The notes beneath the pieces were generated by a model. That model was not told the DNA's origin. It searched no databases and saw nothing but the letters and a program-made list of their open reading frames with translations. From the NCBI RefSeq assembly GCF_003334385.1, contig NZ_QOWN01000067.1: DNA of 10,916 nt. One strand, given 5' to 3'. Shown here piece by piece: positions 1-1,042 of this stretch. Numbering within the stretch: position 1 is the stretch's first letter; every line of letters starts with the position of its first letter. Made by a program: the position numbers and the translations under genes. This DNA is from Escherichia coli. GTDB taxonomy: Bacteria > Pseudomonadota > Gammaproteobacteria > Enterobacterales > Enterobacteriaceae.

Positions 1-34
1 AGTTATCGTGAGAGTAATTCATCGGCACGTTAAA

Positions 35-1042
35 TCATATCAGGCGTAATACCACAACCCTTAAGTTAGCGCTTATGAGGTGTTGCTCCGGGTGTTTCCC
101 CTGCCGGTTCGGCGAGTACGCGAACCAGACCGCTGGAGGAGATGACGAACCCACATTGCGATCATCCCGGACATACGTCCAGATACGCCCTGTTTTCGCC
201 TTTTTCTGACCCGGTGCCAGTACCTTTACCGGTGTGTCATCAGTGTGAACCTTGCGGGTGTTCATTACATAACGGTACAGGGCATCATTCACCGGTGTCA
301 TTAACTGGCAGCACGCGTCAACCCAGTTGGAGAGTAAGGCCCGGCTCAGTTCGACACCCTAGCGGGCAAAGATTTCACTCTGACGATACAGTGGCAGATG
401 TTCGCAGTATTTTCCCGTTAACACGCGGGCAAGTAATCCGGGGCCCGCGATACCACGCTCTATCGGGCGGGACGGCGCCGGTGCTTCAACAATACAGTCA
501 CATTTTGTACAGGCTTTTTTTACCCGTTCTGTGCGGATCACTTTCAGGGCACTGCTCACCAGTTCCAGCTGTTCAGCGCTGACTTCCCCCAGATAATCCA
601 GCTCACCGCCACACTCCGGGCAACAGCTTTCTTCTGGCTCCAGGCGGTGTATTTCACGGGGAAGGTGTGCCGGTAACGGACGACGATGGCGCGACTGTCG
701 CAACTGGCGGGGAACCTGAGGATCGTCTTCCCGCCCACTGTAACGATCGCTGTCCTGTTCACGTTGTTTCAGCAGAGCCTCAGCCAGTTCAACTTCACGA
801 CGCAGTTTTTCAGAACGGGTACCGAACAGCATCCGGCGCAGTTTTTCTATCTGAGCCCGCAGATGTTCTATTTCCCGTTCATCTTCTTCGATCTTTTCTT
901 CGGCACGTGTCAGTGCAGAGCGCAGGAAGGCTTCCGTCTCTTCAACCAGACTCAGTTGCTGGTCTTTCTGACGGAGGGCTTCAGCCTGCTCAGAGAGCAA
1001 CCTTTCCAGCTCTGCGATGCGAATGAGGTATTTCTGACTCAT
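35..1042 (-). pseudogene. tnpC: IS66-family transposase TnpC (orf3), disrupted by an in-frame amber stop at 359-361 and lacking the C-terminal part
   Basis: ORFs 359..1042 and 35..301 are in the same frame, separated by one TAG (plus-strand 'cta' at 359-361). The N-terminal part has a leucine-rich coiled region and a CxxC...CxxC zinc-finger-like motif (CPECGG...CTKCDC), then APAPSRPIERGIAGPGLLA...LPLYRQSEIFAR. The downstream part carries the HTDDTPVKVLAPG...GRIWTYVRDDR...AVWFAYSP motif typical of IS66 transposases. Read-through gives about 335 aa against the roughly 500+ aa expected; family resemblance ends after ...HPEQHL near position 79. Confidence 0.85.

Follow-up and report, generated by a model that had tools for sequence, protein, structure and literature searches.

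The insertion sequence IS186 reportedly has a hot spot at the promoter of lon in Escherichia coli, and its consensus target is said to consist of a run of G, N3-6 and a run of C. In the recent literature IS421 and IS186 are treated as one element (PMC12844343). IS186 is described as using hot spots at which one position is occupied in either orientation, as at the lon promoter (PMC3045373; PMC4618355). Elements of the IS4 family make target duplications of about 10 bp, and ends beginning with 5'-CAT are typical of the IS231 and ISH8 subgroups of this family (PMC2266710).

The second element relevant here is ISEc23, a member of the IS66 family. The window, i.e. the whole stretch of 10,916 nucleotides analysed in this work, carries part of a copy of ISEc23 at 78-1930 on the minus strand. 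It comprises the 5' part of tnpC (78-1042; of 537 codons, the first 322 are here, with IS421 cutting the last of these), tnpB (1073-1423), tnpA (1420-1845) and a terminal repeat that reaches 1930 with ...GTTTACGCTTAC; the plasmids that match the fec region do so from 1931 onwards. The gene order tnpA-tnpB-tnpC of IS66-type elements is present, as seen from the open reading frames and from the PGAP names in E. coli GE3. Matches of about 100% to window positions 77-2200 and 77-10916 occur in many E. coli chromosomes, where a gene annotated 'IS66-like element ISEc23 family transposase' stands intact next to the fecIRABCDE operon. The ISEc23 side of the window differs from the intact GE3 copy beside the same fec operon by 1 base in 2124. 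Intact ISEc23 TnpC has 537 amino acids and matches NF033517 (IS66 family transposase) with 452 bits.

The surroundings of ISEc23 contain further IS-derived sequences. Directly against its end at 1930 lies a remnant of the C-terminus of an IS3-family transposase (1931-2160, a 68-aa ORF with rve_3), which is annotated in GE3 as 'integrase core domain-containing protein, incomplete'. Insertions of IS66-family elements usually make an 8-bp direct repeat. The flanks of ISEc23 in GE3 (L003 2322-2331 and 4853-4860; window 1931-1938) read ...GGAGAAAT on one side and GAAACTGC... on the other and are not an 8-bp direct repeat; ISEc23 may have taken part in a later rearrangement, or it may lie with a different IS3-family fragment on each side. 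At its right edge (10841-10916) the window enters an IS1-like terminal repeat (GGTAATGCTGCCAACTTACTGATTTAGTGTATGATGG...), and the homologous place in L007 has an InsA-type gene call (PF03811) upstream of fecI. IS elements thus stand on either side of the fec operon, ISEc23 on the left and the IS1-like repeat on the right.

Judged by its sequence, window 1-77 represents the minus-strand terminal 77 bp of IS421/IS186 (IS4 family), namely the end nearest to the transposase start, with the rest of the element beyond the window edge. All 77 bases are identical to those of the complete 1339-bp IS421 copy in L001. With positions 1-120 as query, IS421 ends were matched in more than 5000 E. coli records, with 1-77 identical (E about 1e-32), and the matched features are annotated there as 'IS4-like element IS421 family transposase'. 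One arm of the terminal inverted repeat, 23 bp long and reading CATAAGCGCTAACTTAAGGGTTG on the minus strand, occupies positions 55-77, with base 77 as the outermost; on the plus strand the edge of this arm reads ...CTTATG, the repeat starting 5'-CATAAG. End-to-end comparison of the complete L001 copy revealed a perfect 23-bp inverted repeat, and both arms are equally perfect in the complete copies L002, L012 and L014, while the window shows one arm. In these four copies, too, it is the end seen at 55-77 that borders target DNA. Furthermore, the window holds the first seven codons of the IS421 transposase, MNYSHDN (2-22, minus strand, ATG at 22-20), and the annotated start of the transposase coding sequence in L001, L002 and L014 is the base homologous to window position 22. 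The full-length transposase of L001, of which the window has 7 codons, scores 133 bits against NF033592 (NCBIfam, IS4 family transposase; cut-off 115). An IS end further to the right than 77 was considered and rejected: some megablast matches of IS421 ends reach about 90-99 because the target sites are alike (GGATGTAGCCCC vs AGGTGTTGCTCC), and the alignment ends the IS at 77.

The window was aligned base by base with the intact ISEc23 of E. coli GE3 (L003), which showed identity from 78 rightwards and none leftwards. The breakpoint is sharp and located between 77 and 78; since both sequences have G at 77, this base is ambiguous. The minus-strand frame of tnpC runs ...NRQGKHPEQHL, continues with ISANLRVVVLRLI and is closed by a TAA stop at 37-35, which lies within the IS421 end. 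The remaining two minus-strand frames both contain stops within 1-82. These results agree with the initial annotation, in which tnpC homology ended abruptly at the left edge, neither alternative frame continued and another element inserted into tnpC was, besides a deletion or rearrangement, one of the readings offered, and the one borne out here. It had also suggested a search with the left-edge sequence and a look for an inverted-repeat terminus at the breakpoint; the search returned the IS421 ends, and the repeat arm stands exactly at the break. Its stop at 35-37 was correct, and only its count of 14 non-conserved codons has to be changed, to 13 foreign codons after HPEQHL plus the stop. The resulting chimeric 88-aa ORF (35-301) is not a gene. 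The ATG of the IS421 transposase is in frame with the interrupted tnpC, four codons past the TAA (...RLI*FNVPMNYSHDN). This shared frame is probably coincidental; conceivably, expression from the tnpC promoter could read through into IS421.

Besides the left-edge break, which had been recognized correctly, tnpC contains a second, independent lesion that was absent from the earlier description. At 359-361 (minus strand) CAG is changed to TAG, giving an amber codon (Q228*). The plus-strand base concerned, A361, is the only difference from GE3 in 78-1100 and is a G-to-A change relative to intact copies. Public assemblies contain the 227-aa amber product in 86 blocks, and the 8 places listed lie mostly next to fec, some of them in different surroundings. 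In L006 (GCA_902841925.1, 11569-12875), the amber-carrying ISEc23 tnpC beside fec is also interrupted by an IS110-family element (DEDD_Tnp_IS110); both the IS and the site, further along tnpC, differ from those in the window. The IS421 target is unoccupied in five out of five listed places whose sequence reaches the site (L004-L008; 8 listed). Amber-carrying copies with an unoccupied IS421 site indicate that the amber codon very probably arose before the IS421 insertion, and most likely tnpC was already dead by then. Thus tnpC is inactivated twice, by the amber codon and by IS421. With these two lesions, in codons 228 and 322, the ISEc23 copy of the window is unable to make its own transposase and is no intact, potentially autonomous element; it is a decaying element that collects nested insertions.

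In GE3 the uninterrupted target reads GGGGCGG-AGGTGTTGCT-CCGGG. Based on the homologous insertions in L001 and L013, AGGTGTTGCT at 78-87 of the window is predicted to be the right-hand copy of a 10-bp target-site duplication. Duplications of 10 bp, with G-rich and C-rich flanks around the core, were found for all four complete IS421 copies extracted, i.e. in cynR (GGATGTAGCC, context CTGT-GGATGTAGCC-CCGC), in tnpC of ISEc43 (GGTTACTTGC, context CCGG-GGTTACTTGC-CCGC), in cpsB (GGAATTTTCC, context GAGG-GGAATTTTCC-CCGG) and in the IS66-family tnpC of plasmids pMTY14664 and pE100416_79 (AGGTGTTGCC on both sides). The duplicated core is usually GG-N6-CC within a G-run/C-run context. These targets and ends are in line with the consensus given above for IS186 and with the duplication length and CAT ends known from IS4-family subgroups. 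The window target follows this pattern approximately, with a core of AG...CT compared with GG...CC elsewhere, and having GCTCC where the plasmid target has GCCCC it is the poorer fit of the two.

Insertions at the same site were detected in other replicons. On pMTY14664 and pE100416_79 (L001, L013), a complete 1339-bp IS421 occupies the homologous base of tnpC in the orientation of the window, and the tnpC fragment continues beyond it. In p90-9133_1 (L016, CP042948.1) and in the metagenome contig OGEK01012359.1 (L015), it is the other IS421 end, ...GGTTCA(A/C)CCCTTAAGTTAGCGCTTATG, that lies against the same base, which is an insertion in the opposite orientation. In L015 one flank of IS421 is tnpC, and the other is unrelated DNA without a matching duplication. 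L016 (1-2520) contains no second IS421 end within 2.5 kb, which suggests that IS421 is truncated there or itself carries another insertion. At this site IS421 is sometimes tied to further rearrangement or, for L015, to assembly chimerism. The IS421 copy in ISEc43 (L012) was also tried as a same-site case and was rejected, as it occupies a different tnpC position in the other relative orientation.

We consider it very probable that IS421/IS186 (about 1339 bp) transposed into tnpC of a chromosomal ISEc23 next to fecIRABCDE in an E. coli-like genome. The insertion splits tnpC in codon 322 of 537, and past the junction the frame enters the inverted repeat of IS421 and meets the TAA after 13 codons. 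What 1-77 is, exactly where the junction lies, the amber codon and the same-site insertions elsewhere were read directly from the sequences compared. The window stops inside IS421, and the complete copy is deduced from the homologous plasmid insertion. To the left of IS421 one would expect the 10-bp duplication AGGTGTTGCT and then the rest of tnpC (CCGCCCCTTCCGGGGTATCC...). For a simple insertion, the plus strand should thus show 1262 further IS421 bases ending CATAAGCGCTAACTTAAGGGTTGAACC, preceded by AGGTGTTGCT and then by ...GGATACCCCGGAAGGGGCGG (tnpC codons 323-537, as in GE3). A truncated IS421 fragment instead of a complete copy, with 77 bp of it visible, is possible.

Alternatively, the junction might be the border of a deletion, an inversion or some other IS-mediated rearrangement, in which case tnpC codons 323-537 would not be located across IS421. 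Rearrangements commonly result from recombination between IS copies. The unrelated DNA on the far side of IS421 in L015 and the missing second IS421 end in L016 point in this direction, but L015 is a metagenome contig of 1.4 kb that consists almost entirely of repeat and whose flanks may have been misjoined in assembly. Moreover, the insertion is clean in both complete plasmids that share the orientation of the window, where a 10-bp duplication is present and tnpC continues. We thus regard a rearrangement as unlikely and favour simple transposition of IS421 into tnpC.

The host IS66 element on the L001-type plasmids is only 92% identical to that of the window (298/323), so that, as far as the flanking bases tell, the plasmid insertion and that of the window are most likely independent events. 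Descent of the window and pMTY14664-type junctions from one ancestral insertion that was spread by recombination would account for the same base, the same orientation and the identical 77-bp IS end. Since IS421 copies are nearly identical everywhere, the identity of the IS ends is uninformative on common descent. Such a shared origin is at odds with the divergence of the flanks and with the difference in the 10-bp target (GCT vs GCC), and the opposite-orientation junctions should not stem from the same event via recombination between IS copies, because each flank would stay with its own IS end. A single origin is therefore quite improbable, and separate insertions at the same base remain our preferred reading.

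The exact junction of the window was not found among complete E. coli genomes, in which two plasmids with a different IS66 host element were the best matches (98.3%). An exact 54-mer across the junction had no match among GTDB species representatives, and no record of the chimeric ORF of 88 aa was found. A 40-mer with one degenerate base did not retrieve the window junction either; its sole match was the opposite-orientation, plasmid-type junction of L015. Using the predicted downstream remainder of tnpC (198 aa, TTG start), only frameshifted ISEc23 copies were returned, all of them without IS421. Several assemblies (L017-L024, around 3950-4030 in each) split the ISEc23 tnpC into overlapping ORFs, and in three of them (L020, L021 and L023) the break is near codons 322-349, within or close to the G/C homopolymer runs of the IS421 target. 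Such splits may reflect true frameshifts or errors of long reads in homopolymers. That no foreign element is present at all and the break reflects natural divergence among IS66-family transposases of this subgroup or a frameshift, the case that would have refuted the initial annotation, or else a sequencing error hiding the ORF, can practically be dismissed: nothing was found in its support except that these frameshifted tnpC calls show G/C runs to be error-prone, whereas intact ISEc23 TnpC continues after HPEQHL with RPFRGILQADAF..., encoded by different DNA to the left of 78, the three minus-strand frames are closed within 1-82 and 1-77 is 100% IS421.

Nested insertion of a known IS into another known IS is ordinary and already known biology. 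For annotation, the left 77 bases of the window are to be read as an IS421/IS186 end, and ISEc23 beside fec as a pseudo-element inactivated twice over. Several unrelated replicons have IS421 at the same base of IS66-family tnpC, and it occurs there in both orientations, which adds a natural example to the hot-spot behaviour of IS186, and the repeated use of the codon 322 site fits the hot-spot preference of this element. With a slight leaning in its favour, we propose that codon 322 of IS66-family tnpC (GGCGG-AGGTGTTGCY-CCGGG) is an undescribed natural hot spot of IS421/IS186, used in at least three independent events at the same nucleotide, in both orientations and in elements about 92% identical. 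If this is true, one IS family recurrently inactivates another.

Compared with the described systems, the window copy of IS421/IS186, the element that encodes the InsL transposase in E. coli K-12, shows no detectable difference; its end is 100% alike over the 77 visible bases, including the CATAAG repeat and MNYSHDN, only the terminus lying within the window. ISEc23 as found intact beside fec in GE3 and others shares its gene order with window 78-1930 and is about 99.95% identical to it, whereas the window copy has the amber codon 228 and the IS421 insertion in codon 322. The hot spot of IS186 at lon resembles tnpC codon 322 in that one nucleotide position is reused in both orientations. In contrast to lon, where the hot spot is a host promoter, the tnpC target lies inside another mobile element and has no evident selectable phenotype, and its recurrent use is deduced from three apparently independent types of junction, as they appear in the sequences.
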